Position numbers and translations under genes: made by a program | The notes under the pieces: model-generated | What the model saw: only the letters and a program-made list of their open reading frames with translations | Databases searched by the model: none | Told to the model about the DNA's origin: nothing | Assembly (NCBI GenBank): GCA_046350815.1 | Contig: JAXLZO010000001.1 | Location: forward strand, 780,001-812,000 | From: Candidatus Saccharimonadota bacterium | Lineage (GTDB): Bacteria; Patescibacteriota; Gracilibacteria; BD1-5; UBA2023 | Direction: 5' to 3' | Length of the DNA: 32,000 nucleotides | In this document: one piece after another, positions 1 through 32,000 of the stretch | Layout: the number at the start of each line of letters is the position of its first letter | How positions within the stretch are numbered: position 1 is the first letter of the stretch

Positions 1-57
1 TGTCAATATTTCTTCGGTATTTTTTAGATGGTGGATATTTTCTCTGTGATTATTGGC

Positions 58-85
58 TTGACTTGTTGCACCTTTTTTCTATGAT
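58..85 (+). promoter_or_regulatory. sigma70-like promoter candidate (TTGACT-16 nt-TATGAT)
   Basis: -35 TTGACT at 58-63 and -10 TATGAT at 80-85, upstream of the SD-led ORF at 125. Confidence 0.35.
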
Positions 86-124
86 ATCGGTCCCTTCCAT
101 TGAGAATAAAAAAAGGAGCTCAAT

Positions 125-517
125 ATGAGCGTGATATTTACACTTGAAACGACAGGAATTTCCCAAGGGGATGCTGAGGAGATACTCAGGGAGTTCCATC
201 AGACGATTGTCTCTCATGCTCAGTCTCTGGGTACGGGCTCTACTATTGTCATCAAGGGGCTTCGATTTCAACGCACAGGTGAACTGCAGATGTCGCCGAT
301 CAACTTGCTTCGGTCTTCTTCGTTTTTCTCACAAGATTCATATTGTGGAGAATCCATCATGACGAATCTTGATGTGCAAATTATAGCTGAGACACTTCGG
401 GAAATTCTTGTTTATCACCATGCACTTGGTGGTGGTTGGATCAAGATTGTCGGACAGGAACCATTTAAAAAAGGTGCCGGTTGGCTTCTCTACGAGTCAT
501 CACCATCGGTGCTGTGA
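125..517 (+). CDS. hypothetical protein (130 aa if UGA 515-517 terminates)
   Basis: ATG 125 is preceded by AAGGAG (113-118) with 6-nt spacing. No family recognised. The only stop is TGA, which is a sense codon elsewhere in this window. Under table 25 the frame stays open into ilvE. Confidence 0.45.
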   Translation: MSVIFTLETTGISQGDAEEILREFHQTIVSHAQSLGTGSTIVIKGLRFQRTGELQMSPINLLRSSSFFSQDSYCGESIMTNLDVQIIAETLREILVYHHALGGGWIKIVGQEPFKKGAGWLLYESSPSVL

Positions 518-534
518 AATTTGGTTTCGAGTCA

Positions 535-566
535 ATCCCACCGCTTGTGGTGGGATTTTTCTTTGT
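535..566 (+). terminator. intrinsic terminator hairpin
   Basis: ATCCCACC (535-542), loop GCTTGT, GGTGGGAT (549-556), then a T-run. Confidence 0.6.
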
Positions 567-607
567 TTTCGCTATACTGAGAGTATATCCCTTACCTACT
601 TTTCTCT

Positions 608-1516
608 ATGGCAAAGACATTTCTTCCCTACGCATATCTTCGTGGAGAATTCCTCCCATTCCAAGATGCTCATATTTCAATCGCTACCCATGCTCTTCAC
701 TATGGTACTGCTGCATTTTGAGGAATACGAGTAGCAATTACGGATGAGTGAAATGCACTCTTCTTTCGTCTCGATGATCATGCAAAGCGACTCTCTCGCA
801 GTGCTCATTATCTTGGGTATGAAATTGATCCTGATTTTATACGATCGCGTCTCATAGAGTTCGTTCAAATGAACAAGCCAACCACTTCTATCTACATTCG
901 GCCTCTCGTCTACACGAGTGACCTCGATATTAGTCCGAGACTTCATAATATCGAGAAAGATTTTCTCATCTACGGTATCGAGCTTGGTGACTATCTCAGT
1001 GCAGATGGAGTGAGTGCGACGATCAGTTCTTGGGTTCGCCAGAGTGATGCATCGTTTCCACTGCGTGCGAAGATCTCTGGTGGTTATATCACGAGTGCTC
1101 TTGCTAAGAGTGAAGCGGTTGAGCGATGATTTGACGAAGCGCTCATGATGAACTCAGCTGGTAAACTCTCCGAAGGAAGTGGAATGAATGTATTTCTTGT
1201 TCGTGATGGCACCATTATCACTCCTGGAGTTACTGAGGATATTCTTGAGGGGATCACTCGATCGAGCGTGATGAGTATTGCACGACATCTCGGATATGAG
1301 GTGGTTGAGCGAAGTGTGGATAAGAGTGAGCTTTTTATCGCTGATGAGGTTTTCTTGACTGGTACGGCCGCTCGCATTACCCCAATTCATAAGATTGAAC
1401 AGTATCATCTTCCGAGTGATCGTCCGGTTTTCTCAACGATTAAGTCCTATATGAATACTATTTTCAATCAGGAAGCGACCCCATTTTCTCATTGGATCGA
1501 AGAAGTGAAAATCTAG
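608..1516 (+). CDS. ilvE: branched-chain amino acid aminotransferase
   Basis: Frame-2 fragments (608.., 869..1129, 1145..1516) join across 3 in-frame TGA. N-terminus reads MAKTFLPYAYLRGEFLPFQDAHISIATHALHYGTAAF-G-GIR. C-terminal half reads EGSGMNVFLVRDGTIITP..EGITR..FLTGTAARITPI. Stop is TAG at 1514-1516. Confidence 0.9.
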
Positions 1517-1589
1517 AAGATTTTGGGGTTGCATAAATTCCGCTCTGTTGGAGGTGTGCTCGTAGGGCTGGGTGGTTTTATTTGTATCG

Positions 1590-2069: not shown

Positions 2070-2786
2070 GGGTCTAGACTAGCAAATTTTTAAAAATAGC
2101 TTTTTTTGCGAGTCTGAAATTTTTATAATTGTATCGAAATTCGCACTCTTTCAAATGAAGATGAAATTTATCTGGGGCAATCCCATTAAACTTTGCCATT
2201 CTTCTTTTGCAGAAACTCCAGAAAGATTCAATACCATTCACATGATTCTTTCCTCTGGCAAACTCATTCTCACTGTGAAATACCCTATAGTGATCATATC
2301 CATTTAAAACAAGAGAATCATATGCTTTCCATCCATCCGTATAGATGGTAGATCATTCCAGTATTTTCCCATGAATAATTGGCATAAGTTCACTTCTGGA
2401 GCAGTTCTCTACAATACTTACAAATACTCTTCCATCTCGCTTGAGAAGTCCAAACACTGGTGTTTTTCCTGCAGCTCACCTTCCTCTTTTTCATCTAACC
2501 CGACGAGCACCAAAGTAACTTTCATCCAGTTCAAATTCTCATCAGAATTCATACCTTTCTTTGAAACTCTTTGATTCCTCAATGGAAATTCGCACAATAG
2601 CCTCTCGAAATCGGTTATACCAAAGATTCACACTATTACGATTTATCCCCATAATTTTTGCTGTCTGAGTAGCAGTAAAATCCTCAAAAAAATAGTAAAA
2701 AATTCTTCAAATTTTATAAGTCGATAATTTTGTCTATTTGATCATAAGCAAATAGTGTAAGAAGTACTATTTGCTAGTCAAGACCC
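2070..2786 (-). mobile_element. IS1595-family insertion sequence (717 bp, IS1016-like size)
   Basis: Terminal inverted repeats GGGTCTAGACTAGCAAAT (2070-2087) and the reverse complement of 2769-2786, GGGTCTTGACTAGCAAAT (17/18 match). Flanking 7-bp direct repeat TGTCTTG at 2063-2069 and 2787-2793. Encodes a single DDE transposase. Confidence 0.9.
2074..2652 (-). CDS. IS1595-family DDE transposase (192 aa from the first ATG)
   Basis: Minus-strand frame with 5 in-frame TGA, all at Gly positions. It reads ..ELDESYFGARRVR-G-KRGR-G-AAGKTPVFGLL..STIYTDGWKAYD..HVNGIESFWSFCKRR. Stop is TAG at 2074-2076. An HTH-like segment (EDFTATQTAKI) lies upstream of the first ATG but has no canonical start, so the N-terminus is uncertain. 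Confidence 0.85.
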
Positions 2787-2870
2787 TGTCTTGTTTTCTT
2801 CTTCGAAATATGCTCTCTTAGGAGTTGATATGGAAGATCCTGAATCAAGTTCAGGATGACGATTTTTTGT
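2787..2870. repeat. repeat cluster A, right part (split from the left part by the IS)
   Basis: Begins with the TSD copy TGTCTTG and contains 28-nt hairpin copy 2. Confidence 0.7.
2833..2860 (+). repeat. 28-nt hairpin repeat, copy 2
   Basis: Exact copy, followed by GATTTTTTG. Confidence 0.85.
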
Positions 2871-3120: not shown

Positions 3121-6100
3121 GTGTCGTATATGGCATGGCGCAATCTCTTTGGGAATCGTGATCAAAAGGTTACCGATTCGGAACAAGTAGCAATTGACTC
3201 GATAGCTCGTGAACTCGAGCGATCTGAGACTCCTACTGGGGCAATCAGCACATTGAGTGCCAAGGTTCGTAAGATGATCAATACGGTTGCATCCCGTATT
3301 CGTAGTGTTGTTGGTGGATCGAGTGATGTAGCAAAAGCTGCTGTCCTTGCTGCTGCAGCTGGTGCCACCCAGATGTCTGCTCATGCCGGACAAGATTTTC
3401 AGCCAAATCAGAATCTTGGTAGCAATATGCAAACGACAAAAAAGATTGATCGAGATGGTGGAAGTCCTCTCATATTAACTGGTGGAGTAGTGCAAGATGG
3501 TGATAAGGTGGGTCCTTCGCTTCAAGTGCGAGTTGAGAGTCCTGATCATGCAAGTGCTCTTGGTGGGTCGCTACGTTATACTGATGGTCATGCTCAGTTG
3601 AGTGGAAGTGGTGCACGTACACTTTTAAACGGTACTGTGACGGTAGGTGGGTGAATTCTTCTTGATCGACGGGATGCGCAAGATATTTTTGGCTCGAATG
3701 TGGGAAATGGTCCGCTACAGGGTGTGCAGGGTACTTTTCGTAGTGCTTATACTCCAGGTGATGGACGTACATCCCTTGATCTTGGCGCGAGCTATAAAAA
3801 GACCCTTGATGCTATTCTTGGAAATAATACCACTCTAACATCGAGTCAAACAACTGTTGATACGGGTACTTCTATTAACACTATTCAAACTGATACCACT
3901 ACTACAACACAAACACGATTTGATGGAAAGAGTGTTTCAGATATATCTCTTTGAGGTACACAGCATTGGGACAATGATCATCAAGCATTCTCATTTAGCA
4001 CCAAATACCGTCACACAACGGGTGAACCATCGGAGCTCGGTAGCAATCTACGCTATCAGATTATTGGAAATGGTTTTGGTGGAGAGGAGGGCCGTAACCG
4101 ATTTAGCGCACAGCTTTCTGCAAATGATCTCGGCATGAAAAATCCAACCTATGGTATCAATGTTTCACACGCCGTAGGCCCTCATGGATCGATCGGTTTG
4201 ACGGCAGGTAAGACTGAAGGAAGTGATCCTTTTTTCGGAGCGACTTATTCGTATTCATTCGACGGCAAGAGAGCAAGTAATTTTTCTCTTCCAACAACTA
4301 CACAGCAAACAGCTGGAAACATGGTTGCTGACATGAATAATGAAGGGCAAAACCCAAATATTTTTCCATATCGACAGCTCGGCAATCTCCATAATACTAC
4401 AACCGTCACTCAAGTGAGTAAGGTAGTCAGCTCTGTAGCAAAGACTCTCATTACTCCATCCGCTTCTTCGATCTCTCTCAAGGCAGGTGAGACCAAAGAT
4501 ATAGAGATATCTGTTCAGGGTGGTGTTCAACCAGTCGTCACGACTGATGGTGGCGTTATTGCTGATCTCATTCCTGTTGCAACAGCTCAACCATCAGAAG
4601 TTGCTGTTGGTGTGATGACGACTTCTGCACAAGATGCTGGAGCAAAAAAATTTATTGTTCGTATCACTGCTCCTATCGATGCATCTCGGACGAGTGCAAC
4701 CGTGACAGTGAGTGCTGGTAATACAAAGGTAGATATTCCGACGAAGATCACAGGAATTATCAATCAGGCTCCCGTGGCAAATCAAGATTCTGCGACCACC
4801 GATAGCAATACTCCTATTGAGATCGCCGTGCTCAAGAATGACAAAGATCCTGAAAGTCAATCCCTCTCGATTGTGAGTGCAACGGTTGCTCCGGATGAGG
4901 GTAGTGTTCTTGTTACCGCGAATAATACCATATCGTTCACACCAAAACCTGGATTTGTCGGAACAGCAGTTATTTCTTACACTGCCAAAGATAGTCAAGG
5001 CGCACTGTCGAATTCCACTTTTGTGAGTGTGAAAGTGAACGCAGTGATTGATCCGAATGCATTTACGGTAGTGGTATCTCAGCCAGAGGTTATTCTGGAG
5101 CCAAATAGTGAGACGAGTATTAGCCTCATCGCTAATGCTCGCATCCTGAGTGTGACTCCTCTCAAGCTCCCAAATGGAATTACCATCAATTTCAATCAGG
5201 AAATACCACGATCCCTCCTCGCATTTGCATCGATGAATAGAATGGCGGTTACTACCATGGTCAAATCGGTTATTGCCGAGACCCCAGATCAATCTATACA
5301 AGTCATGACGGGTGATGATGTAACTCCAGGTATACATACGATCCGAATGACGATCGTATCCGAGAATGGAGATTCAAAAATCGTCACTATGAATGTGGTC
5401 GTACCAGAAAAACAAGATGCAGGGACGGTCAATCTCGCTCCAACAGCTACGATTGGTGCGGATAAGACAAGCGTATCCGTAACGAACAATATCTCCGATG
5501 ATGATGGCATGAGCAATGTCGTCTATATTCTCGTGGATTCTCAGGGACGTCAATATGTTCAATCAAATGGTGACTTCTCAGGAGTTGTACCTGGTGTCGC
5601 TACCGTCCATACTGAAGCTCTCGTCGTCAATGCGAAGACTGGTAATTCTGAGCTTGTTGTGAGTCCAAGTGCCACTGTCACGATCGAAGAACCGCCAAAA
5701 ACTGATGCCGCAACCGAATATTCTCCTCGTAGTGTAAGTGCCAACGGTACAGTCATTACGGTAACAAATCCAAGTGCCTATGCTACTGATGCTGATGGCA
5801 AGACAAGTGTTACTGTCTACCTTTCAAAAGGTAGCTACCGTCTTGCACTCACACCAGCCTCAGGAGACGCTATCTTTAATCTTGAATCAATGGGTGTAGC
5901 ACCGAAGGATCTCTCGGGAAGTTGGACGGTCGAGGTTGAGCCAACTGTGCCAAATGGTGCAACTGGGCAAAATCAAATCGGGGAGATTCAACGATCGAGT
6001 GTCGAGGTGCAGTATAATCTCAACGAATCTGGACCAACAATTAGTACCCCTACGGTAACATGATGAGTAGTTGCATATATCGATGGTATTTATGTTGCTG

Positions 6101-6363
6101 CTACTGATCTTGGTGATATTACGATTGGGAATCTTTCGGCAAATGATCCAGATGGTATAGGGTCTTATATTATTGCAAGTCAGCTCTTTTGAGTTCTGGC
6201 AAGTGGTAGTGGTCAACTGCCAACAGACGTAACTATACCTCAATCAACTTTTCGAGACAAGTGAATCTTTTGAAAAGATGATATAATTTCTATTCTTGTA
6301 ACTGATAATAACCTTCAGCCAAAAAGTAGCGAATCAAGGATCAAGATAGGTTTTCATAACTAG
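3121..6363 (+). CDS. large surface/adhesin-like protein with Ig-like and cadherin-like regions (1080 aa)
   Basis: Frame-1 fragments 3121..3654, 3700..3954 and 4135..6063, plus a tail to TAG 6361-6363, join across 7 in-frame TGA. A cadherin-like/tandem-95-type segment at about 4768-5040 reads VANQDSATTDSNTPIEIAVLKNDKDPESQSLSIVSAT..FTPKPGFVGTAVISYTAKD. The start may instead be ATG 3130. No obvious signal peptide. Confidence 0.75.
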
Positions 6364-9099: not shown

Positions 9100-9455
9100 G
9101 GAAAATCTCCGACTTATCGCGTTAGTGCGATGCACTGGATTGCTGAAACTCGCTGGATCAAGTTCGAAATGACAAACTTTTGTCATTTCGACTATTGGGA
9201 GAAATCCCTTATAGTTCTGTTTTTGGTGGTAGTTTTTTGTATCAGAGATCTCCCCTAACGTCGAGATGACAGAATGTGGTAAAGAGAGATCCCCGCCTCC
9301 GCGAGGATGACATATTTGATTCAAAGAAATACAACTGAGATTGTTAGTGCGTCATGGTGGTGTGCGACCAAATGAAGTCCAGCGAGTGTAACGAGTCGGG
9401 GGATGCCTTTTGTGAAGAGAAGTGGAAGATCCTGAATCAAGTTCAGGATGACGCT
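9100..9455. repeat. mosaic palindromic repeat cluster C
   Basis: Contains TCGAAATGACAAA-CTT-TTGTCATTTCGA, GATCCCCGCCTCCGCGAGGATGACA (9288-9312, identical to 1846-1870), a GCGACC..GAAGTCCAGCGA..GAGTCGGGGGA unit, and 28-nt hairpin copy 3. Confidence 0.8.
9425..9452 (+). repeat. 28-nt hairpin repeat, copy 3
   Basis: Exact copy. Confidence 0.85.
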
Positions 9456-9696
9456 TTGTTTTATATTTTATCTGTCACTCCCGTTATACGTAAAGTATAT
9501 ACATAAAATTGAAAATCACTGTAATAACAGCGGATGAAGGAGTGTATTTATAATGAATAAAAGATGATAGAAAAATGCTGTCAATACTTCTTTTCGACAT
9601 GGGAGAGTTATTATGATAGACTGATAATAATTCTTCGAAATATCTATGTCATTTCGCACCAATTGGCAAAATTTTCGCTCAACAATGGAGCCTCAT

Positions 9697-11859
9697 ATGA
9701 AATGGGTAATTTTTCTTACTTCTTCCATCGTCTCTGTTGTTTTTCTTTCTATGCTTCTTTTTTCTCAAAGAAATTGGCAGTATCCTATTGAAGTTTGGTC
9801 TCTCTACCGATGAAATGCACAAGTGACACAAGATGATATTGCTATTATAAGCATTGATAGCAAAACACTTTCATCTTTTACTACAACAAATCTTTCTTTT
9901 CTTCAATTATGATCTGATCAAGAACAGGTGATAGCTCGGACATTAAATATTTTGGAAAATTCATGAGTAAAGAATATCGCGATTGATATTATTTTTGCAA
10001 ATAAGTTTGAAAAAGAAAATAGGGGAAATCTCTATCCTATTGCAGATGTAATGAGAAAGTATAAAAATATTATTCTTGCTATGCGATCAGGTATTGGAGA
10101 ATTACCATGATGAGTAAATAGTGGTACTAATAAGACAGAAAGTGGTAATATTGACTGTGGAAATCATATAAAAACAATAAAAAAACAAATTATATCAGGA
10201 GTAGAGATTGAAGTAGAAGAAGGCGGCATTATGGAGTGCAAGGAAATGGATCAATGAAAAAAAGTACCATCATCTGATCGTGTTCATCCAAATGACACAT
10301 ATGATGGATTGCCATGGTGATTTATCAATCAGTCAAATGATGCTGGATATTCACTATTTAGACCAAAATGGCTTGCCGATGGTGATACAGTGGATACACA
10401 GAAACTCTATCCATCATTGTGATATGGATTGATCACTCTTTCAGGATCGAATCAAGATCCGCATTTATGAGTTATTGATCGATTCTCGTATTTTACCAAG
10501 TCAGATGGAACAAATGCCTACCCTATCTATAGTTTTATCGATGTTTATGAAGGGCGAATCCCAAAATGATTATTGGAAGGCAAGACTATATTTATTGGTG
10601 AGTCAGGAGAACTTCTTCATGATACGGTCAAATCTCCAATTAACGGTAGTGATATGCCATGAGTAGAGACTCATGCTCACTACTATGAGAGCTTGGAGCG
10701 TGGACTGATGCTTCATGATGCCCCTCTCTTTGCGAGTGTTCTTGGTATGATATTTCTTATTGTCACTATTTCTGCTTGTTTTGTCTTTTTCTCTGGTGTC
10801 TTGAGGGGGTGGGGGATAACACTCTTTTTGGCGATTATGTCAATATTTCTTGGACGATACCTTTTTGCACGATATCAAATTATTATCCCTATTGCTGTTA
10901 TCTTGCCGGTGATCGGATCAACAGGTTTTTTTGCATTTATCCTCAAATACATATTTATTGAACGTCAAAAAAATGCTATTCGCAAGGCATTTGGAAGATA
11001 TCTCGATGATCGTGTTGTTCGTGATATAGAGCGTCATGGTGGACTCGATCTCGGCAGCAAAGATGCTCAGATCGCAGTGATATTCTCGGATATTGAGAAT
11101 TTTAGCTCGTATTCCGAGCGACTCGGCACGAAAAAGATATTTGCCCTGATGTCTCTCTATCTCTCCAAGATGACCGAGATATTGCAGCAACATGGTGGTA
11201 CGCTTGATAAATATATTGGAGATGCCGTTATGGGATTTATCGGTGCTCCACTCGAGATGAGTCGAGAAGATGCATGTCAGAAGGCTTTTGCAATCGTATC
11301 AGAATGGCAAAATGCACTCCCGAATCTCAATCAAGAACTCTCAGAAAGAGGTTTACTCACAGCGCTTGATGGATCTACACTTCCTCCGATTCGATTTCGT
11401 GCTGGTATATCCTATGGAAATGCGATTGTCGGGAATATCGGATCAGAGGATCGTGTGAGTTATACTGCTATGGGTGATACAGTGAATCTTGCATCGAGAC
11501 TTGAAGCCATCAATAAATATTATGGAACATACCTCTGTATTGCTCAAAGTGCCTATGAATGACTCTCGGAAGAATGCAAAAATTCATGCATGCTTCTCGA
11601 TCGGATCAAAGTAAAAGGAAAAAATGAATGAGTAAATATCTATGAAATACTCACACCAGAGAGTGATATGAATACGCGAACTGCATACAAAGAAGCGATG
11701 AACAAATATTTTGCACACGTGCATAATGACGCAAAAATTCTGCTTGAATCGATTGAAACGAGATTTATAGCTGCAGGTTTTATTCTCAAGCGATACAGAG
11801 AAGAAGAATATCAAAAGAGAGTAGGGGAGGATGGAACATTCGAATTTCATGAAAAGTAA
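9697..11859 (+). CDS. CHASE2 sensor domain-containing class III adenylate/guanylate cyclase (720 aa)
   Basis: Frame-1 ORF from ATG 9697 (GGAG 6 nt upstream) through 13 in-frame TGA to TAA 11857-11859. Layout is an N-terminal TM segment, an extracytoplasmic region, a TM cluster, then the cyclase core IAVIFSDIENFS..GGTLDKYIGDAVMGFIGAP..RAGISYGNAIVGNIGS..YTAMGDTVNLASRLE. Confidence 0.85.
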
Positions 11860-12370
11860 GATAGCTCCCCCTAGCCCCCTCGTTGAAGGGGAACAGGGCA
11901 AAAGAGATTTCTTGTTGGGTAAGATTTTGTATTCTATCCCCTTGATAAGGGGGACAAAAGGGGGTTTGCATTCTTCCCCTCTTGAGGGGTGGCACGCAGT
12001 GACGGGGTGGATGTATTCCCGTATCCTCTTTGGTGATAACTCCTTATACAAGGGATATCTCCATACGTCGATATGACAAATACAGAATGCAAAGAGGACA
12101 AAATCACTACTCCCTCAGCAAGGATGACAAAATATATTTCTAGGACTAAGTGGAGGTAGTATTTCTTCCCCGAGGGGTGCCGTAGAGGCTGTTGGTGCGA
12201 CCGAAGGAAGTCCAGCGAAGTGCACAGTCGCACTGAGTCGGGGGATTGTATTTGAGAAAAGTTAAGGAAGATCCTGAATCAAGTTCAGGATGACAGAATT
12301 AATGCAACTCCTCCTTATTTTTGTTGTCCTGTTCCCCCTCGTTGAGGGGGCTAGGGGGAGTTGTAGTTTT
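11860..12370. repeat. mosaic palindromic repeat cluster D
   Basis: Shares modules with clusters A and C. TTCTTCCCCTCTTGAGGGGTG..GGGGTGGATGTATT (11971-12017) matches 2021-2063. The GCGACC..GAAGTCCAGCGA..GAGTCGGGGGA unit (12194-12246) is also present. Includes 28-nt hairpin copy 4. Confidence 0.8.
12267..12294 (+). repeat. 28-nt hairpin repeat, copy 4
   Basis: Exact copy, downstream of the cyclase gene. Confidence 0.85.
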
Positions 12371-12568: not shown

Positions 12569-12727
12569 AAATCAAAAAGAGCGAGAATATTTGCGCTTTT
12601 GTTATGAGTATGCTAGGATAATAGAGGGTTCCCCATTTTCACAGGATATTTATTGTAAAAAATGAATATCACACTTCAATAAAGATGCTCATCGTAAGGA
12701 ATGAGTATCATCTTCGAGGGTTTGACC

Positions 12728-13105
12728 ATGAAAGCATTGAAATTTATTCTTGTTTTTCTCCTTGGTGTTGTCGCCGGTGTTGTAGGGTTGTTCTTCGTTT
12801 TGGCGTTTAGTGATGAATCTCAAAATGTTGATACGAAGCCGGTAACGACGGCTATATCAGTCAAGCAGGAGGCTTGCTTGATGAGCGCTGCTGAACAAGC
12901 TCGGGATATCTATAACGAACTTGCTGTGCGTCGCGGCAACATCGGTACGAAAATGGAGTTTAAGCGTGTTAGTCAAAAAGAGCTGGCAGTAGAAGATGCA
13001 GTTAGCCAAAAGCTCTACGCTCTTGCTGGTTCCTTTATGGAGCCGTGCATTGTGTATGAGGAACCTGTGAAGCTGGATCGCACTGTCCTCGCGGACATTC
13101 GCTGA
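12728..13105 (+). CDS. hypothetical signal-anchored protein (125 aa; the longest ORF starts at 12701)
   Basis: SD GAGGG 7 nt before ATG 12728. N-terminus MKALKFILVFLLGVVAGVVGLFFVLAF. The only nearby stop is TGA 13103-13105. Under table 25 the frame runs to TAG near 13280, crossing a terminator and the next gene's start. Confidence 0.5.
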   Translation: MKALKFILVFLLGVVAGVVGLFFVLAFSDESQNVDTKPVTTAISVKQEACLMSAAEQARDIYNELAVRRGNIGTKMEFKRVSQKELAVEDAVSQKLYALAGSFMEPCIVYEEPVKLDRTVLADIR

Positions 13106-13124
13106 TTCTGCTCACTCCCATTGA

Positions 13125-13153
13125 GACTCGCATGAAAGTGTGGGTCTTTTTTT
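13125..13153 (+). terminator. intrinsic terminator
   Basis: GACTCGCA, loop TGAAAG, TGTGGGTC (8 bp including 2 G-U pairs), followed by T7 at 13147-13153. Confidence 0.6.
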
Positions 13154-13218
13154 GACTTTGTATGTAAAATATGGTCTACTGATAACGTGATGTATTGAGA
13201 AAATAAAAGGGGGTATAT

Positions 13219-18873: not shown

Positions 18874-19179
18874 ATGAAAAAAGATCTTTCAAAACGACTT
18901 TTTGAACTTAAGCTCTTACGAAAAGCCTATAAATCATTGGGGAATCGTGCAAAAAATCTCTCAGATCCAATGAATGTTCGTTTGGAGTACCCAGAACATA
19001 TGACTCTCAAAGCACGAGATGAGATCATGGCGCTATTAACAGAAAAGTATCATCTTGATGCCGAGACTACTTTTTTACCTCGACCTCATCTTACGGGAGG
19101 TGTTCGATTGTTCGTTGGAGACAAACTGCTTGATGTGAGTTTCGAACAAATGAAGCAAAAATTCATTCCTATCCATTAA
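18874..19179 (+). CDS. atpH: short F0F1 ATP synthase subunit delta-like protein (101 aa)
   Basis: Sits between atpF and atpA. The C-terminal GGVRLFVGDKLLDVSFEQ resembles the OSCP/delta C-terminus. It is much shorter than typical delta subunits. Confidence 0.6.
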   Translation: MKKDLSKRLFELKLLRKAYKSLGNRAKNLSDPMNVRLEYPEHMTLKARDEIMALLTEKYHLDAETTFLPRPHLTGGVRLFVGDKLLDVSFEQMKQKFIPIH

Positions 19180-19188
19180 TTCTTTTGT

Positions 19189-20697
19189 ATGTCTGGTGTT
19201 TCTGTAATTGATCGACTTATTCGTGAGGTCCAAGAGCAAATTGAGAGTACTGATTTGCACCCTGAGTTCCGCGAAAGTGGAGTTGTTCTCAGTGTTGCTG
19301 ACGGTATTGTTCGTGTAGGAGGCCTGCGAAGTGTTGCCTATAATGAAGTTGTTATTTTTGAGTCTGGCGCACAATGAGTTGCACTCAATCTTGAAGAATT
19401 TAGTATCTGAGTTGTCGTTCTGAGTGGTTTTGAAACACTCAAGGAATGAATGTCTGCACAGGCATCTGGTCGTATTCTCGAGGTTCCAGTATGACCAGCT
19501 CTTGTTGGTCGTGTTGTAGATGCACTTGGAAACCCTATAGACAATCTTGGTCCGATCCAAGCAACAGAGTTCTACCCAACAGAACGTGTTGCGATGGGTG
19601 TTATGAGTCGAAAATCAGTACATGAACCGATGGCCACAGGTATTAAAGCAATTGATGCACTTGTTCCAATTGGACGAGGACAACGAGAACTTATCATTGG
19701 TGATCGTCAAACAGGAAAAACACAAATTGCCATTGATGCTATCTTGAATCAAAAAGGGAACGGCATGAAGTGTTTTTATGTGGCTATTGGTCAAAAAGAG
19801 TCAAAAGTTGTCTCTATTGTAGAAGAGCTTCGCAAGGCGGGCGCTATGGAATATACAACTGTTATTGTTGCATCAGCTTCATCTCCTGCGGCGATGCAAT
19901 GGCTTGCTCCATATGCCGGTTGCGCTATGGCTGAGTATTTCATGATACATGGAGAACATGCACTCATCATTTATGATGATCTCACAAAGCACGCAAATGC
20001 CTATCGTGAGATGTCACTTCTTCTTCGTCGTCCACCAGGTCGTGAAGCGTATCCAGGTGATGTATTCTATCTACACTCTCGTCTTCTTGAGCGTTCTGCA
20101 AAGCTCAATGATGAGCTTGGTGCTGGTTCTATGACTGCACTCCCGATCATTGAGACTCAGGCAGGAGATATTTCTGCTTATGTTCCAACCAACGTAATTT
20201 CAATTACTGATGGTCAGATATTTCTCGAATCAACTCTCTTTAATGCAGGTATCAAACCAGCAATTAATGTAGGAAACTCTGTATCTCGTGTTGGTGGATC
20301 TGCTCAGACAAAGGCTATGAAGCGAGTTGCAGGTACACTCAAGCTTGATCTTGCACAATTTCGTGAACTTGAGGCATTCTCACAATTTGCATCTGATCTT
20401 GATGCTGACACACGAGGACAGCTCGAGCGAGGTCGTCGTATGGTCGAGATTCTCAAGCAAGATCTCTCAAAACCTCTTTCATTTGATAGACAGGTAGCAA
20501 TTATCTTTGCTGGAGCCAATGGATATCTTGATAAAGTATCGATTGCGAAGATTCGTGAATTTGAATATGAACTCTTCTTGGCACTTGATCAAGAAGGAAA
20601 AACACTTGAGGCAATCCGTTCCACTAAGGATCTCTCTGATGATTCAAAAGCAGCACTGAAGGTTATACTTGATCAATTGGTACTTCGTTTTGTATAA
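19189..20697 (+). CDS. atpA: F0F1 ATP synthase subunit alpha
   Basis: Frame 1 with 4 in-frame TGA in the N-terminal barrel, all at conserved Gly (AQ-G-VALNLE, SI-G-VVV, KE-G-M, EVPV-G-PALVGR). Walker A motif GDRQTGKT. Stop is TAA. Confidence 0.97.
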
Positions 20698-20699: not shown

Positions 20700-21602
20700 A
20701 TGGCATCACCGAAAGAAATCAAATCCCGCATCAAGTCGGTTAAGAATACCGTAAAAATCACTCGAGCTATGGAGCTGATTTCTACGGTGAAGATGAAGAA
20801 GGCGCAAGAGAAAGTATTTTCTCTTCGTCCTTTTGCGCGTGAGGCAAATATTCTGCTCTCCTCTCTTCCAGAAGAGGTAAAATTTGATCAAAAAATAACC
20901 GGTAATAAGACTCTGATTATTGCTATTGGTTCAAGCAAATGACTTTGTGGATGATATAACATCTCGATATTTCGCGCTCTTGCAGCTCTTCATAAATCTC
21001 TCAAGGGAGAGATTTGTGATTATATTACTATTGGTAAAAAAGCTCGTGATTTTGTAGCACGTACAGGTGGAAATATCGTTGAGGATTTTGATATTGCGAG
21101 ATCAACACAAAAAGAACTTGCAAAACAAGCGAAAAATCTCTCTCGATCTATTATTAAGCTCTATCAATCATGAGAGTATTCTCGTGTAGTGATTGTCTAT
21201 AATCACTATTTTTCAGCTATATCCCAAGTTGCTCTGACGAAGACTATTCTTCCTATGACAGCGAAAGATATACGAGAGTTTCTTACATCAATTGATCCAA
21301 AATATCATTCAACTGATCATGGAGATGGGGTGAAAAATATAACTCTTGAGCCAAGTGTTGGATATCTCATAGAGCGAATGATTCCATTTATATTGGATAT
21401 CATGATTGAAGAAATATATAGTGAAACACTTGCATCAGAGCACGCAGCGCGTATGTTTGCCATGAAGAATGCAAAAGATGCGGCAGGAAAGAAGGTGAAG
21501 ACTCTTACCGTGAGTTATAACAAATCTCGTCAAAGTGCTATTACCAAAGAGGTATCTGAGATTGTCTCGGGTGTAGAGAGTCTCAAGGAGGTGGCTGTTT
21601 AG
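20700..21602 (+). CDS. atpG: F0F1 ATP synthase subunit gamma
   Basis: Frame-3 fragments join across 3 in-frame TGA. It reads IKSVKNTVKITRAMELIS..SK-G-LCG-G-YN..SEHAARMFAMKNA. Stop is TAG. Confidence 0.92.
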
Positions 21603-21708: not shown

Positions 21709-22665
21709 ATGGTTTCTATACTCCCACATCTTCTTTTTCTCTTTGGAGCAAATCTTCTTCTTCTGATTTTCATTCGAAAAAATCTTACAGTAACTTGGGG
21801 GAATATTGTTCAATTTTTCTTGTATGGAATAATGGCTGCTATTATTCTCAAACTGTTTATCTATAGTATTGGCAAGGAAATGTCAGTGGATCTTTATTTT
21901 TTCCAAATTCAGATTGTTGCTAAAGATGCAATTGGCAATTTTCAGGACTCTTACACTACACTTCTTCAACGATTCTCAGTAGAGTATTCATTTCTCTTTG
22001 CTCTCGGTATTACGGTGCTTCCAGCAATTCTTGAGGAGATATGCAAGTTTTTGCTCCTTCGTATGCACGTGCGAAATACAAGCATTCCTTTTCGATCCAT
22101 TCGAGATTATATTTATGCCATGATTGTTATTGCACTCGGATTCTCTTTTATAGAGAATATTCTCTATCTCAAAGATTATCTTGCTCTCGGTTATAGTGGT
22201 TGACTATTGTTTCAGCTTATCTTCTTGCGACTTTGCATGAGCACAACATCTCATGTTCTTTTTTCAGGAATCATTGCTTATTACTATGCACGATATAGGT
22301 TTTCAAATTATGATCTTGTGGAGAGTGGTTTCCTTGTGAAATATAGAACTCTAATAGCATATCTGAAAAAATTACATATTTTTCATGCATGAACTTTTTC
22401 ATTCTTCTATAGCACTAGAATTATTATTGTTGGCTTGTTTCTCGGAATTTTTTCCCATATTCTCTACAATCTCTTTCTTTATCTGCATTTAGAGCTCATC
22501 TCTTTGGGATTTCTCTCTATTACATTTTTTTGCTTCTTTTATATGGTTCTTTCACGCAGGGACATTGGTATGAATATTGCGGGTATTCAAGAGAAGATTG
22601 CAATTCTCAAAGAGCTCAAAGGTCTTGATGAGCGTAAGAAGAAAATATGGAGCGAGAACAAATAA
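21709..22665 (+). CDS. PrsW-family intramembrane metalloprotease-like membrane protein (318 aa)
   Basis: Frame-1 fragments join across 2 in-frame TGA. Polytopic membrane protein with PrsW-type motifs ILEEICKF, GFSFIENILY and TSHVLFSG. Stop is TAA. Confidence 0.7.
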
Positions 22666-22706: not shown

Positions 22707-24707
22707 TTATTTTAGACTGCCTGTACTTGTTGATCAGGTGTTTGTATTTGCTACAGTTTTTGTTCCACCTCCTGAATAGATAGTTGTACCATTCCATTTG
22801 CAGAGCACAACACTTGAGGTCGGTATGGATGGAAGATAGTTAGTACATCTTGTCAGTGCTCATGATTCAGAGATGTTGTATTCTGGGTTCCAAGCTTGAT
22901 TATTGACCCACATATCCATTTTTCCAAGAGATGTTGTAGATCATGAACTTGTTACACCCGTTGAGGTTGATCCAGCGCCAGCAGGCGTTGTTTTTACTTG
23001 TGAAAAAATTGTTTTTCCATTCCAAATACATGTAAGATACGTAGATTTTGGATCACTTTCATATTTCTTCCATGTACTTTCACATATAGCTTTAGCTTCA
23101 ATTTCAGCTATGTTATATCTTCCAGATTTATCGATAAGAAAATCGGTTTGTATAGTAAGAGTCCCAAGAGGAATTGCTCCAGTTGAGGTTGATCCAGCGC
23201 CAGCAGGCGTTGTTTTTACTTGTGAAAAAATTGTTTTTCCATTCCAAATACATGTAAGATACGTAGATTTTGGATCACTTTCATATTTCTTCCATGTACT
23301 TTCACATATAGCTTTAGCTTCAATTTCAGCTATGTTATATCTTCCAGATTTATCGATAAGAAAATCGGTTTGTATAGTAAGAGTCCCAAGAGGAATTGCT
23401 CCAGTTGAGGTTGAACTTCCTGTGCCTGCTGGTGTAGCTGGAGTTGTTGGCTTTGGTGTGGTTGTAGTTGTAGTACCAGTGTTAGTTACTACTCGCGTTC
23501 CATACCCCTTTGAAAGCTCTTTCGTTCCATTCCAGACGCAGGAAAATTTACTACTTGCAGGAAATCGTGACGCGAGCTCTGCACAGTAGTTAATTGCCTC
23601 TTTTTCATTGAGCTTGTAGGTATTGTAGATATCTGGTTGATTTTTACCATCAACTGTGACAGTGATACTCGCAAGTACATCCGCTGGTTTAGTTGGAGTG
23701 ATAACACCACTTGCAGTAGATCCTGTATTTACGGGTATTTTTGGTACAACTACTGTTCCAGTAGAGATTGATCCACTATTTGATGATGAAGGTTTTGTCT
23801 TTGAAAAAATTGTTTTTCCATTCCAAATACATGTAAGTTGTGTAGACTTTGGATCATTTTCATATTTTCTCCATGTACTTTCACATACAGCTTTAGCTTC
23901 AGTCTCAGCTATATTATACCTTGCAGACTTATCAATAGAAAAATTAGTATTTATAGTAAGCGTACCAAGAGTTATTGCTCCAGTTGATGTTGAGCTTCCT
24001 GTGCTTACTGGAGTTGCTGGTTTTGGTGTGGTTGTAGTACCAGTGCTAGTACCAGTTACCACTTTTGTTCCGTATCATTTAGATAATTCCTTTCCGTTCC
24101 AAATACATGAAAATTTACTGGTTGTTAGAACAAGCTTTGCATACTCTGTACAGTAGAGATTTGCATATGTTTCACCGAATTTAGATGTATTGTAGAAAGC
24201 AGGCTGATTTTTACCATCAACTGTGATAGTAAGACTTGCAAGTACATCCACTGGTTTAGTAGGTGTACTTGGACGAATCACTACTTCACCGGAAATACTT
24301 GGTGTTGGTACCACTCATCTTGAGAAAATTTCAACTCCATTCCATGTACAACGAATATTACTGTTCATGTTATTCGCTGAATTTTGTTTGCAGTTTGAAT
24401 ACGCTTCCTCCTTTGTAATGCTCGCAGTTGAGATAAAGAGTCGACCATTCATAAAGCCTTCATATTTTCATTTGTTTGTAACAATAACCTCGCCCGAGAT
24501 ACTTGGCTTTGATGGAGTCACACCCCAAGGATTCTTATTAATAACAGCGGGTGTAACTGGCTTTGTTGGTACACTATACATACGAGAACGAAAAATATTG
24601 GATACAAGTGCTTCTTGCATACCAGGATTCGCGAACATAAGTACGCTACCAACACTGATGACACCAAGTACTCATGAGAGTATCATGGTAGATTTTTGCA
24701 TTTTCAT
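22707..24707 (-). CDS. secreted repeat protein with seven two-cysteine '..C.WNG' modules (666 aa), uncharacterised family
   Basis: Minus-strand frame from ATG 24707 to TAA 22707-22709 contains fragments 24075..24314 and 22941..24062 and 7 in-frame TGA. N-terminal signal/anchor MKMQKSTMILS-G-VLGVISVGSVLMFA. Modules of about 55-60 aa are separated by T/P/S/G-rich linkers. Confidence 0.8.
22960..23403. repeat. perfect tandem duplication, 2 x 222 bp (one 74-aa module plus linker), in frame within the repeat protein
   Basis: 22960-23181 is identical to 23182-23403, and identity continues 11 nt into a third unit. A diverged (not perfectly matching) copy lies at about 23790-24010. Confidence 0.95.
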
Positions 24708-25757: not shown

Positions 25758-25842
25758 TGGTGCCCAGAGCGGGACTTGAACCCGCACGCTTTAGAGGCAA
25801 AGGATTTTGAGTCCTTCGTGTCTACCATTCCACCATCTGGGC
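25758..25842 (-). tRNA. tRNA-Leu (anticodon CAA), type II with long variable arm, encoded CCA
   Basis: The reverse complement folds as a cloverleaf. Acceptor GCCCAGA/TCTGGGC. Anticodon stem AAGGA/TCCTT with loop CTCAAAA. T-arm CGGG-TTCAAGT-CCCG. Discriminator A followed by CCA. Confidence 0.9.
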
Positions 25843-26553: not shown

Positions 26554-27573
26554 ATGTCAGAAAAGCAAGTCATCATCGATCAAATTGTTCAAGTATTTCG
26601 TGATTCACATCGAATCCTTTTCACTGCGGGTGCAAATCTTGATGGTGATGCTTTTGGGTCGCTCCTAGCTCTCGATGAGGTTGCTCGGTCTCTTGGGAAG
26701 GAGACTTGTATCCTCAATGAGAAATCACTCGATTCATATTATTCGTTCATTCCAGATCATACTCCGATAGTTCCTCTTATTCCAGATGGATTCAACCCAG
26801 ATCTTATTGTGATAACCGACACAGGAGATCTTGGTCTGCTTGGGAAGATATGTCAGCAATATTTGTCAATTTTTCAGAGTATACCAATAGTAAATATTGA
26901 TCATCATTCGACGAATACAGAGTTCGGAACATACAATCTTATTGATGTGAGTGTTTCATCTGCATGTGAGTTGACTGCAGAGGTAATCGAGGCGATCATT
27001 CCAGAGACGCAAAATGCATGTTTTAGCAAAACATTGAGCTCTTATCTCATGCTTGGGGTTTTCTATGATACGAATTGTTTTCGTAATCAGAATACGAATG
27101 CAAAGACTTTTGCATTTATGAGCCGTCTCCTTGCGTGTGGTGCCTGTTATTTTACCTTTGTAAAACACCTCTACAAATCTCGATCTATTTCAGAGATGCG
27201 ACTCTATGGGCATCTTCTGGATAACGCTATTGTATATGGAGATAATGGCGCTGTTGGCTGTATTATTGATCAGGCAACACTTCTTAAATACGGCGTGAGT
27301 GAAGATTCACTCGCCTCTGTGTTTAATAATGAGTTTCTCTCGACGATTCTTTGCGATTTTTCTTTCGTCGTCAAAGAATCTGATGATGGTCGTTATAAGA
27401 TAAGCCTCAGGACAAGTAAGGATGGTTATGACGTATCGCGACTTGCACAGATGCTCGGTGGTGGTGGCCATGTGAAAGCGGCAGGGGCAATCACAACGAA
27501 GTCGCTTCCTGAAATTTTGAATATTATCGAAACATACTACTATACATGGCAGACAGAGAAAAATCGAATATAA
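26554..27573 (+). CDS. nrnA: DHH-family phosphoesterase (NrnA-like oligoribonuclease/pAp phosphatase)
   Basis: Intact 339-aa ORF. DHH motifs DGDAFGS, ITDTG and NIDHH. DHHA1 motif GGGGHVKAAG. Confidence 0.8.
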   Translation: MSEKQVIIDQIVQVFRDSHRILFTAGANLDGDAFGSLLALDEVARSLGKETCILNEKSLDSYYSFIPDHTPIVPLIPDGFNPDLIVITDTGDLGLLGKICQQYLSIFQSIPIVNIDHHSTNTEFGTYNLIDVSVSSACELTAEVIEAIIPETQNACFSKTLSSYLMLGVFYDTNCFRNQNTNAKTFAFMSRLLACGACYFTFVKHLYKSRSISEMRLYGHLLDNAIVYGDNGAVGCIIDQATLLKYGVSEDSLASVFNNEFLSTILCDFSFVVKESDDGRYKISLRTSKDGYDVSRLAQMLGGGGHVKAAGAITTKSLPEILNIIETYYYTWQTEKNRI

Positions 27574-28410: not shown

Positions 28411-29535
28411 ATGCAGGAGAAACAAGAAAAAGTACTCGTACTGCATGATTTTTTTCTCTATCGTGGGTGAGCTGAGAGATATAATCTGATGCTTGCTGAT
28501 GCACTGTGTGCGGATATTGCAGCGTCATTTTGGTCTGATGAGGCAAGAGGAATGATGGTCTGAGATGGGGGAGGGAAGAGGATATCATTTGCTCGTGAAT
28601 CTATTGGTTGGTGAATTCCGTGACTGAGACAGCTCTATCTTGCTTTCAAATTTCGCTTTTCCACCTGATTTGTTCGTGAGTATGATACAGTTATTTTCTC
28701 AAATGATGCTATCGCATCGGTAGGGAATGCACGAAACGATGCAAAGAAAATCTTCTTTGCACATTCGCTGCCACGCTACCTCTTTGATCGTCGAGAAGAA
28801 TATTATCACAAAGTACCATTTTTTCTCCGGCCGATCTACATCGTTTGTCGATATTTTCTTGAGCGACTTTTTTTTCGTGATCTTTCGCACATTGATACAA
28901 TTTGGACCAATTCTGAGCAACTTCGAGTGCAAATCAAACACTATACAGGTAGAGACGCGGAGGTAATCCATCCCCCTGTGAATCAGTTATATTTTTCTCA
29001 AGATGGATTGCGATATGATCCTGGATTTCGATATTTTCTCTCTTTTTCGAAGCTTTCCTATTTCAAGCGAATTGATCGTGTTATTGATGCTTTTGAGAGA
29101 CGGCCTGATCTTCATCTCGTTCTGATTTATGGAGAAAGAGATCCTGATAGAGATGAGCTTTTAGCTCGAGCATCGGCATCTCCCAATATCCATCCTGTTC
29201 GTCTTGAGGACAACAACCTCCTTCCAAGCTATATTCGCGGAGCAATAGCGACGATTTTTATCCCCAAGCATGAGGACTTCGGGATGGTGGCGATCGAGTC
29301 GCTCTCTTGCGGTACACCCGTAATCGGAGTGAATGAGTGAGGTCTTCGAGAGACGATTCAAGATGGTGTTAATGGAATCTTAGTACCGGAGTGAGCTCCG
29401 ATAGAGAGTCTTGATCGGGCGTTCACTCAGATGACGGAGTCCCGAGAGCACTATGCAAAAAATGCACGCTCATCGGTGAAATGTTTTGGTCTTGATGTAT
29501 TTACGAGAAAACTTGAGAAGATTATTCATTGATAA
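28411..29535 (+). CDS. glycosyltransferase family 4 (GT-B fold)
   Basis: Frame 1 from ATG 28411 through 8 in-frame TGA to TAA 29533-29535. It reads VLVLHDFFLYRG-G-AERY.. and [29 protein letters not shown]. Confidence 0.8.
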
Positions 29536-29551
29536 TCTTCTTGGTATGAAG

Positions 29552-29690
29552 CTGTAACGGTTTCGGGCTTTGCGTTCGGGCGGGTTTCGGAGCACAAAGT
29601 TTCAATTTATTACTAAAGTTCAATAGAGGCACAAAGCTCCAAATTTGCACGTCAGCCCGCCTGACGCAAAACCCGTGTTAGCGGTTCGTT
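29552..29690. repeat. GC-rich imperfect inverted-repeat element enclosing an AT-rich core with direct repeats
   Basis: Arms CTTTGCGTTCGGGCGGG (29568-29584) and CCCGCCTGACGCAAAA (29656-29671). Local hairpin CGTCAG-CCCGC-CTGACG (29650-29666). GCACAAAG appears twice (29592-29599 and 29629-29636). Confidence 0.55.
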
Positions 29691-29866
29691 GTTTCATTTC
29701 AAATACTCAATGATAATTTTTGTCTACTTCAGTATAATGTGTCCTGCTTGAAAATCTTCGTCAAAATTGTTTTATAGTACTTAATAAGTTTTAACATTTG
29801 TCCTTCCTCTTCTGTAGGCCAATACAAGGCACAATTTTGCTGCTTTTCATTTGATTTTTCTATTTA

Positions 29867-30166
29867 TTAAATCCAAACAATAATTTTTATGTCATTGCCA
29901 ATTTCAATGTTCTCATTTTTCCTTATTTTAGCTTTGAGTGGAAGCAAATAAGTTTTGTGTTTAGTGTCAAACCATATTGCTGTTTCCCATTCGCTATTTC
30001 CAATTTTTGCTGTTGCTTTCAGTCGTCCCCAACCTTCTTCCTGCCATTTCAAATTTTCTCTAATTTCCGTTGATATTTCAATCGGAAGTGAAACGAAGTG
30101 CCAACCGCTTGGCGATGAATATTGCCAAGTCTTTGCTGAAAATTCATATTTTATTTTTCCATTCAT
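29867..30166 (-). CDS. DUF1905 (YdeI-like) family protein (99 aa; the longest ORF starts at 30217)
   Basis: MNGKIKYEFSAKTWQYSSPSGWHFVSLP..GWGRLKATAKIGNSEWETAIWFD..YLLPLKAKIRK. No TGA codons. The gene and its flanks look visibly more AT-rich than neighbouring genes. Confidence 0.7.
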   Translation of the reverse strand: MNGKIKYEFSAKTWQYSSPSGWHFVSLPIEISTEIRENLKWQEEGWGRLKATAKIGNSEWETAIWFDTKHKTYLLPLKAKIRKNENIEIGNDIKIIVWI

Positions 30167-30284
30167 TTGTCTGTTTTCTGTGTCCGTTCTACAATGACCG
30201 CTAACATGTAAATTCACGCAATGATTATCTTGTTTTTCCTTGCAGAGTCTATATTATTCGTCTAATATATTTCTATATGAAGTT

Positions 30285-31130
30285 ATGCGAATATATAAGA
30301 CTCAAAAAGAATCTGTATGAGCTTTTTGAGATTGGCTCACTCTCAAAAGATATTCTCCAAAAACACACAAAACATATTTGAGTGTACTCAATATGTTTCT
30401 GAAAGAAATATCTATAACAATATCAAAGATACAAAGAAATGATATTGAGGAGTATTTGCAACATAAAATCCAAAATGGACTCTCAGTATCGAGGCATAAG
30501 CAATTAACCTGAGTATTGAAGTTATTTTTTTCTCGTTTTTTAGAAAGACAAGATATTATCTGGGATGAAATGTATCCAGAAAAATGAGAAACCAAGCTCC
30601 CAAATATTCTCTCAAAGTCAGAAGTAAAAAAACTTCTCGATACACTCAATAACGTCAAGCATAAAACTATCCTTACGCTGATATATGCCACATGAATGAG
30701 ACTCTCTGAATGTGTGAATCTTCAAATTGGTGATATTGATTCAAAAAGAATGACCATCAAGATCCGACAAGCCAAAGGAAAGAAAGATCGATATGTGCCA
30801 CTTTCCCCAAAGCTTCTCGATCTTCTGAGAGTGTATTATCGGGAATATCATCCAAAACAATATGTATTTGAATGATGAGAATGATGAATCTACTCGGAAC
30901 GAAGTGTGCAACAAATTATGAGGCAAGCATTGAACCGAGCATTGATTACCAAAAAAGCATCGGTGCACACACTCCGTCATAGCTATGCGACACACCTTCT
31001 GGAGGATGGGGTAGACGTACGCATTATCCAAGAATTTCTGGGGCATAGCCATATACGAACGACCCAAATATACACCCATATTAGCACTCCAATTCTCTCA
31101 AAGATAAAAAGCCCACTGGATGATTTATAG
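30285..31130 (+). CDS. tyrosine-type site-specific recombinase/integrase (281 aa)
   Basis: Frame 3 from ATG 30285 through 9 in-frame TGA to TAG 31128-31130. N-terminal SAM-like domain. Catalytic region reads [50 protein letters not shown]. Confidence 0.88.
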
Positions 31131-31229
31131 ATGTTGTATGATAATTGATTTTCTAAAAAATAAATTCAATATACGTCAAGTATTATTATTTTCTAGAAAT
31201 GTGAGAATATGGTAGAGTAGAGAAAAAAT

Positions 31230-32000
31230 ATGAATCCTCCCAAACTCGAACATTATGTAAATGATGTCTCCAAAGTCCTCTCTGAGTCAGTGCGCCATGA
31301 GGCAAATGAACGACTCAAGAATCATGACACACAAACAACCGTTCAATCAGTTGTCTATCTCTTTCCTCACCGTCAAGGTCGGGATCTTCTTGATATTGGC
31401 CTCGAGATATTCAATGAAAATGGTATCGGACAAAAAGATACCAACAATGGACTCCTCCTTATCGTTGCAACGGAAGAAAAGAAACTCCGAATAATCACAG
31501 GAAAAGGAATGGAATTCGAATGGAACACTGAGAAATGCAAATATATCGTGGAGCAAATTCTCCGCCCGCTTCTGAATGCTGGAAAATATGATGAGATGGC
31601 GAAAGCTTGGTGTGATTGTGTTGAAAAATGAGATAAATTAGTAATAAAAAAGACGAAAATTATTAAATATGCGAAGCAGCCGAAAACACAAAAACAGTGA
31701 GAAAATTATCTTATGTTAACACTAATAGCGTGCTTTATAGAGATAGTTGCATCTTTCCTTATATGACTATTTTTATATCATGGAATTGCTATATATATAG
31801 TTGCATTATTTCCGACTGTGTTGTGGGGTATTATTTTTCTTTGGTATTTTGTAAGTCAAAAAGAATTTACCCGATTAAAAGTGCTTTGAATACTATATGT
31901 ATTGTTATCAGCTCCATGGGTTTATTTTTTATGATCAGAATATCTTGATTTCTCGGCACATTGCGTTCAAGAGGAAAAATGCTTGAACACGGATGGGATA
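31230..32000 (+). CDS. TPM-domain (YgcG-like) protein with C-terminal TM segments, 3' partial
   Basis: ATG 31230, then VNDVSKVLS..QSVVYLFP..NNGLLLIVATEEKKLRIITGKGME. The frame continues through 5 in-frame TGA into hydrophobic segments and is still open at the window end. Confidence 0.7.

Follow-up and report, generated by a model that had tools for sequence, protein, structure and literature searches.

The window analysed here is a stretch of 32,000 nucleotides (contig JAXLZO010000001.1 of assembly GCA_046350815.1, positions 780,001 to 812,000, forward strand) from Candidatus Saccharimonadota bacterium, whose GTDB lineage is Patescibacteriota; Gracilibacteria; BD1-5; UBA2023. It has a G+C content of 40%. 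With TAA and TAG as the only stop codons, 24 gene models can be delimited which cover about 80% of the window and contain 109 in-frame TGA codons next to 581 GGN codons, TGA making up about 16% of the presumed glycine codons. Pfam and NCBIfam domains span the TGA codons in FtsZ, FtsA, AtpA, AtpG, AtpB, IlvE, YmdB, the integrase, the IS1595 transposase and others. The window almost certainly comes from the chromosome of an uncultured bacterium in the Gracilibacteria (BD1-5) lineage that uses genetic code 25, in which UGA encodes glycine; only UAA and UAG terminate genes. The features are as follows (aa, amino acids; TGA positions are those of the first nucleotide).

608-1516, plus strand: ilvE, class IV aminotransferase, 302 aa; PF01063, 159 bits; TGA 719, 749, 1127; stop TAG
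2074-2733, minus strand: IS1595-family transposase; PF12762; six TGA (2707, 2542, 2539, 2491, 2476, 2353)
3130-6363, plus strand: large surface protein with Big_9/cadherin-like domains (Pfam matches), 1077 aa; seven TGA; no TAA or TAG over 1077 codons
6768-8618, minus strand: FecR-domain protein, 616 aa; PF04773; 16 TGA
9685-11859, plus strand: CHASE2-adenylate/guanylate cyclase, 724 aa; PF05226, PF00211; 13 TGA
13532-14218, plus strand: rplA, ribosomal protein L1, 228 aa; PF00687; no TGA among 25 glycine codons
14457-15674, plus strand: ftsA, 405 aa; TGA 14577, 14712, 15492
15686-17017, plus strand: ftsZ, 443 aa; TGA 16049, 16184, 16766, 16898
17138-18037, plus strand: atpB; PF00119; four TGA
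18128-18343, plus strand: atpE; PF00137; no TGA
18394-18870, plus strand: atpF; PF00430; one TGA
18874-19179, plus strand: short atpH-like gene, 101 aa; PF00213 slightly under the cut-off; no TGA
19189-20697, plus strand: atpA, 502 aa; TGA 19375, 19408, 19447, 19492
20700-21602, plus strand: atpG, 300 aa; TGA 20940, 20952, 21171
21709-22665, plus strand: PrsW-family membrane protease, 318 aa; PF13367; two TGA
22707-24707, minus strand: repeat protein, 666 aa, with direct repeats D1 and D3; seven TGA
Between the repeat protein and rlmE in gene order: hypothetical protein gene
25758-25842, minus strand: tRNA-Leu(CAA); ARAGORN, Rfam RF00005
25896-26510, minus strand: rlmE/ftsJ methyltransferase, 204 aa; PF01728, 160 bits; TGA 26439, 26373, 26019
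26554-27573, plus strand: DHH/DHHA1 phosphoesterase (Pfam), 339 aa; no TGA among 23 glycine codons
27594-28406, plus strand: ymdB-type metallophosphoesterase, 270 aa; PF13277, 234 bits; TGA 27630, 27663, 27729, 27768, 27786
28411-29535, plus strand: group-1 glycosyltransferase (GT1), 374 aa; PF00534; eight TGA
29555-30205, minus strand: mobile gene cassette, composed of a DUF1905 gene (29867-30166) and an attC-like palindrome (29555-29679)
30285-31130, plus strand: tyrosine recombinase of the XerA/integron-integrase type, 281 aa; NF040815; nine TGA against five GGN
31230-32000, plus strand: TPM-domain protein, cut by the window end; PF04536; five TGA

TGA is the commonest of the three stop-like trinucleotides in the window (841 on one strand and 715 on the other; TAA 364 and 461, TAG 301 and 308). 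Re-calling the genes, a check proposed in an earlier note made from the letters of the window, raised the share covered by open reading frames (ORFs) of 150 aa or more from 0.47 under table 11 to 0.94 when TGA was no longer a stop. When all residues in ORFs of 100 aa or more were summed, freeing TAG or TAA gained far less than freeing TGA. The statement that genes here stop at TAA or TAG was borne out by all 23 complete models (14 TAA, 9 TAG), a count that is partly true by construction. It is independently supported at the end of ftsZ, where a C-terminal DIPAFVR motif, which we take to be the conserved tail of the protein, lies downstream of both linker TGA codons (16766 and 16898), so translation must run through both. 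The prediction that a standard-code annotation of this DNA would be fragmented likewise proved correct: public calls for the same species split FtsZ into 121, 42 and 232 aa and AtpG into 80 and 137 aa, and also cut AtpA and others.

The use of TGA is uneven among the genes. None of the glycine codons is TGA in rplA, atpE, the DHH gene or the short atpH-like gene; the share of TGA is 7-9% in ftsZ, ftsA, atpA and the large surface protein, and 30-43% in the IS1595 transposase, GT1 and hypothetical gene(s). In the recombinase its share is 64% (9/14), above the rest of the window (p = 4.5e-5).

The meaning of the codon was read from the residues that homologues carry at the same positions. TGA was kept as X in every query to avoid biasing the test. 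Column statistics were pooled from the FtsZ, FtsA, AtpA, YmdB and IlvE alignments. Glycine was the majority residue in 13 of 18 TGA columns (mean glycine fraction 0.59, mean tryptophan fraction 0.05), which resembles the 163 GGN columns (glycine majority in 120; means 0.69 and 0.03). The five TGG columns had no glycine majority and mean fractions of 0.004 for glycine and 0.55 for tryptophan, and among the 1676 other columns glycine prevailed in 40 (means 0.027 and 0.004). The contrast in glycine majority between TGA and other columns (13/18 against 40/1676) gave p = 4e-17 in Fisher's test, and tryptophan was the majority residue in none of the 18 TGA columns of the five alignments. The claim of the earlier note that UGA is glycine was thus upheld by the alignment check which it had suggested, the residues opposite TGA being overwhelmingly glycine and never predominantly tryptophan.

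It might be thought natural to draw on database homologues as neutral evidence. We rejected this, because many of them are recoded relatives translated either with table 25, which makes the argument circular, or with table 4, which yields false tryptophans. The residue calls rest instead on solved structures, whose source organisms all use UGA in the ordinary way, and on standard-code loci. Eighty loci around ftsZ homologues were retrieved. Since ftsZ and the atp operon are not adjacent outside the species, only FtsA and FtsZ could be tabulated from genome loci; this comparison used 66-80 translated sequences, mostly of standard-code bacteria. The two TGA codons in the GTPase domain of FtsZ were opposite glycine in 62/80 and 76/80 sequences, and the two in the linker were not alignable. 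The three FtsA columns (66 homologues) had glycine in 62, serine in 49 and glycine in 49 sequences.

The eight positions that the earlier note had given for six in-frame TGA codons in ftsZ, atpA and atpG and for a TGA/GGG pair in the repeat protein were all exact. Of these codons, which it had placed on invariant glycines, those of FtsZ and AtpA and position 20940 of AtpG (glycine in 3/3 Protein Data Bank (PDB) chains) do fall on glycine columns; AtpG 20952 is on a variable column with S, S and P in the three structures. The third AtpG codon, 21171, is opposite H, G and E. For AtpA the note had named positions 19375 and 19492; both are on glycine, and the listing was incomplete, since the gene has four in-frame TGA codons, all opposite glycine in PDB alignments and in 111-119 of 119 database homologues. 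In atpB, TGA 17816 lies opposite A or S in four PDB chains and TGA 17696 opposite G or R. YmdB was compared with four PDB chains: 27729 is opposite glycine in all four and 27768 in three, the fourth being ambiguous, while the other three codons are opposite P/A, variable and M/L residues. IlvE TGA 1127 (aa 174) is opposite glycine in 4/4 PDB chains and 42/47 homologues. In RlmE the PDB residues are G, S and S at 26439 (the fourth alignment begins past the site), V, G, G and G at 26373, and G in all four at 26019. The motif VNE[TGA]G of the glycosyltransferase is aligned with glycine in 4/4 PDB alignments. Two further motifs of the earlier note fared well: the TGA of AT[TGA]MRLSE in the integrase is opposite glycine in every PDB alignment covering the site, and both TGA codons of RxKRGRxA in the IS1595 transposase are opposite glycine in 3/3 standard-code plasmid copies. 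One further TGA of the transposase is opposite glycine in 3/3 copies; the remaining three are on variable columns.

TGA is interchangeable with GGN between strains, paralogues and relatives. In the FtsZ linker, the window has TGA as codon 16766 where three other strains of the species (L001, L002 and L004), about 98.8% identical, have GGA. Otherwise almost all TGA codons of the window are kept in the strains (29/31, 20/21 and 16/16). Within the repeat protein, one unit has SK[TGA]YGT (24075-24077, TCA on the plus strand) where another has SK[GGG]YGT (23505-23507, CCC on the plus strand). The related loci L008, L009, L015, L018 and L044 are likewise recoded, and their TGA codons fall on glycine residues of the window. 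In L044 TGA supplies nearly all glycine codons, compared with 16% in the window.

Several observations weigh against glycine as the single meaning of UGA. In distant homologues a number of TGA columns carry other residues: serine at FtsA aa 86, proline or alanine at YmdB aa 13, methionine or leucine at YmdB aa 65, arginine or lysine at IS1595 aa 9, and at IlvE aa 38 (TGA 719) the conserved glutamate of the FEG motif in solved structures. In addition, a hypothetical membrane-anchored ORF (12698-13279, plus strand), when read through its TGA, gains an odd-looking tail of about 58 residues with seven further TGA codons. A hallmark of code 25 is a tRNA(UCA) with the glycine identity elements G1:C72, C2:G71, G3:C70 and U73, together with loss of prfB. 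No tRNA(UCA) gene was found in the window, in 48 related loci or in the 5.7 kb left of the window; tRNA-Leu(CAA) was the sole RNA gene that ARAGORN and an Rfam scan detected in the window. The deviating sites are variable columns, often with small residues, or columns with glycine in the closest relatives. The last case applies to IlvE, where the C-terminal portion of the protein, which is free of TGA, was used for an exhaustive search; the two closest full-length homologues read FGG, and the mismatch with glutamate is a feature of the lineage.

The alternatives to code 25 can be weighed together. The idea that UGA is tryptophan (table 4), its meaning in Mycoplasmatales and in some endosymbionts of insects, would account for the W found in some database homologues, namely at three of the four TGA columns of AtpA (2-8 of 119 homologues) and at three of the five sites in YmdB (14-33 of 94), and early BD1-5 genomes were indeed deposited as 'gcode 4'. 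However, these W-bearing homologues carry up to 26 W, with G down to 2, in some 270 aa, and in standard-code homologues and solved structures W is absent from every TGA column. They are genes of relatives mistranslated with table 4, for example from bins named 'uncultured bacterium (gcode 4)'. With no tryptophan majority in the TGA columns, with tryptophan prevailing at TGG, and with GGA rather than TGG as the strain variant at 16766, we regard this reading as extremely improbable. The earlier note had dismissed table 4 on the ground that TGG still encodes tryptophan. By itself that argument does not hold, since tryptophan is still encoded by TGG in organisms with table 4. In Mycoplasmatales, Entomoplasmatales and some endosymbionts, as in the window, UGA has a sense meaning and calling genes with the standard code breaks them into pieces; the difference lies in the amino acid. 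It is the residue opposite TGA that decides between tables 4 and 25, and in these alignments it is glycine. The chance that the window follows the standard code, its in-frame TGA codons being pseudogene lesions, sequencing errors, programmed read-through or selenocysteine, is practically negligible. Under table 11 the genes are broken, as decaying genes would look, but the interruptions are by TGA alone, never by TAA or TAG, across about 8400 codons; the TGA codons are present in independent assemblies from different samples; and the differences between strains, with TGA read as glycine, comprise 341 synonymous and 141 nonsynonymous changes. Essential genes (ftsZ, ftsA and atpA) are affected. 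The 109 TGA sites align with glycine and not with cysteine, so selenocysteine does not fit.

A dual meaning, with UGA as glycine inside genes and as terminator in some contexts, is very unlikely. It draws on the hypothetical ORF mentioned above, which would end cleanly at TGA after 125 aa and is apparently complete there, as in public table-11 calls, and on the 3' end of the GT1 gene, ...CAT TGA TAA, where the last sense codon (TGA, 29530) directly precedes the TAA stop. No conserved gene requires a TGA stop, however; every complete model reaches TAA or TAG, the C-terminal motif of FtsZ lies beyond in-frame TGA codons, and release factor 2 (RF2) is reported in the literature to be lost in the clade. 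A different question is whether the variant of table 25 known from Absconditabacteria, and possibly some Gracilibacteria, in which CGA and/or CGG are also read as tryptophan (Shulgina and Eddy 2021, PMC8629427), might apply. UGA is glycine in that variant as in the window, but a genome with the variant would be expected to use CGA and CGG seldom, and at tryptophan positions; in the window both codons align with arginine. CGA is the commonest arginine codon (152 per 10,000) and CGG stands at 24 per 10,000 (122 CGA and 19 CGG in about 8000 codons). CGG encodes the invariant arginine of YIRP in IlvE (aa 98) and an arginine of the C-terminal peptide of FtsZ, and CGA encodes two arginines of an Atp motif identical in solved structures. 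TGG is opposite the tryptophan of SSW in IlvE, present in all four structures, and opposite that of TDGW, present in 3/3 standard-code IS1595 copies. As CGA and CGG stand at invariant arginines, the additional reassignment is absent and the code is plain table 25.

Code 25 as found in the window is therefore no novelty: the code change is already known, it occurs in a known clade and the genome is deposited under the expected name. Glycine as the meaning of UGA is established for the clade (PMC8629427, PMC4032931, preprint 10.64898/2026.05.24.727570). PMC8629427 cites Campbell et al. 2013 and Rinke et al. 2013 for the description of code 25, and PMC4032931 treats it in BD1-5 with proteomics. 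The literature places it in the GTDB class JAEDAM01 (BD1-5 and Absconditabacterales), with tRNA-Gly(UCA) and RF2 loss reported, and notes that many NCBI genomes labelled Gracilibacteria in fact use table 11. By analogy with the clade, UGA would be decoded by a tRNA-Gly whose anticodon is UCA, and loss of RF2 would leave nothing to terminate at UGA. Compared with table 25 of Gracilibacteria (BD1-5) and Absconditabacteria (SR1), the window shows the same UGA at glycine positions, UAA and UAG stops, TGG as tryptophan and low to moderate G+C content. There is no essential difference; the use of TGA is moderate in the window and nearly total in relatives such as L044.

Single proteins also bear on the placement of the window. 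Ribosomal protein L1, which has no TGA, is identical on public contigs from several samples, one of them belonging to assembly GCA_964536125.1, and is deposited as MFO0763993.1, Candidatus Gracilibacteria bacterium. The best named homologues of AtpA and YmdB are from Gracilibacteria, Altimarinota or 'gcode 4' bins. The closest FtsZ loci are mixed. Beside the recoded L008, L009 and L015 there is L007 (76% FtsZ identity, G+C content 52%), which has TGA codons in mid-ORF, one of them on a glycine column of FtsA, and appears to use TGA as a sense codon sparingly. L010-L014, labelled Peregrinibacteria or Peribacteria, look standard-code. The placement in the BD1-5/Absconditabacterales clade is thus a probable one, based on protein similarities and the L1 label. 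In the nearest non-recoded relatives (L010-L014, L016 and L017, the group of closest FtsZ relatives) TGA is a rarer stop, ending 9 of 66 long ORFs, with 0/14 in L012, against 72/319 in other Patescibacteria loci.

For practical purposes the contig must be translated with table 25. Table-4 translations place false tryptophans in databases. The window adds one member, with the plain form of the code (CGA and CGG as arginine), to a clade known as recoded since 2013.

The part of the window that could teach something new is an integron-like cassette platform at 29555-31130. Its DUF1905 gene (29867-30166; PF08922) has no TGA and stops at TAA, so the cassette reads identically in both codes. The cassette is foreign to the recoded genome. 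Its 650 bp of DNA are 100% identical to L094, 96.5% identical to L092 and 100% identical to L093 in two separate pieces. L092 and L094 are standard-code contigs with type-9-secretion genes, which we read as Bacteroidota-like. In L092, fragmented genes were considered as a sign of recoding; this was rejected, the breaks being frameshift errors. All copies of the cassette, in four genomic contexts, start at GTTAGCGGTC, a GTTAGC site, and have a homologous integrase beside them; the end ...CCGTT(A) is common to the window, L092 and L094 (3/4 contexts). At the same junction a sister strain that is 95% identical (L095) has a different cassette.

The cassette ends in a 125-bp imperfect palindrome resembling attC (29555-29679), which, folded as a hairpin, reaches no more than about -1.8 to -1.9 in z-score. 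Relatives of this element, about 85% identical, are unannotated spacers in resistance-gene arrays on plasmids of Flavobacteriia (Riemerella, NZ_CP072192.1, and Myroides, NZ_CP013691.1) with the genes blaOXA, blaMYO-1, aadS, ere(D), erm(F) and tet(X3). Pairs of IS91 transposase and recombinase flank the array on the Myroides plasmid and likewise in L093. The recombinase of the window is transcribed divergently from the adjoining single cassette and shares 43% identity with the integrase that adjoins this cassette in L094. It matched NF040815 ('site-specific tyrosine recombinase/integron integrase') with 223.7 bits at a cut-off of 220. The IntI-specific insertion is absent from the recombinase: TIGR02249 gave 193 bits against a cut-off of 265, and the alignment with IntI4 splits around a gap.

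Integrons consist of an integrase, an attI site and gene cassettes delimited by attC. A divergent tyrosine recombinase, a promoter-proximal cassette, GTT core sites, a terminal imperfect palindrome and a cassette swap at the junction are shared with integrons. The platform differs from them in a recombinase that lacks the IntI-specific insertion and falls below the TIGR02249 cut-off, and in a site family that is the one found between resistance genes on the Riemerella and Myroides plasmids, next to IS91/recombinase pairs. It is quite possible, though we propose it only tentatively, that a code-25 bacterium carries a working integron-like platform here, with a recombinase gene strongly adapted to the code of its host, and that short, TGA-free, TAA-ended cassettes cross the 'genetic firewall' of stop reassignment freely. 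A cassette shared with standard-code bacteria bears on whether the changed code isolates the lineage from horizontal gene flow. If the proposal is true, the shared cassette pool may indicate the bacteria with which this presumed symbiont lives.

Some minor features of the window may be added. The atp operon has the order atpB, atpE, atpF, the 101-aa atpH-like gene, atpA and atpG, and is followed by prsW. The delta subunit encoded by the atpH-like gene has about half the usual length. Neither atpD nor atpC was found within 10 kb downstream of the operon; in the relative L087 both lie about 2.5 kb past atpG, with inserted genes between. The IS1595 transposase is 61% identical to the copy in L088, a record deposited as a Francisella tularensis plasmid; a stop interrupts the frame of the L088 copy. 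A short intergenic repeat with the palindrome GGAAGATCCTGAATCAAGTTCAGGATGAC at its end is present in four copies (1568-1627, 2801-2860, 9393-9452 and 12235-12294), and a second intergenic repeat, AGATCCCCGCCTCCGCGAGGATGAC, in two to three (1845-1884, 9287-9326 and 12104-12143). These intergenic repeats yield spurious ORFs, for example one with ...VILNLIQDLP.

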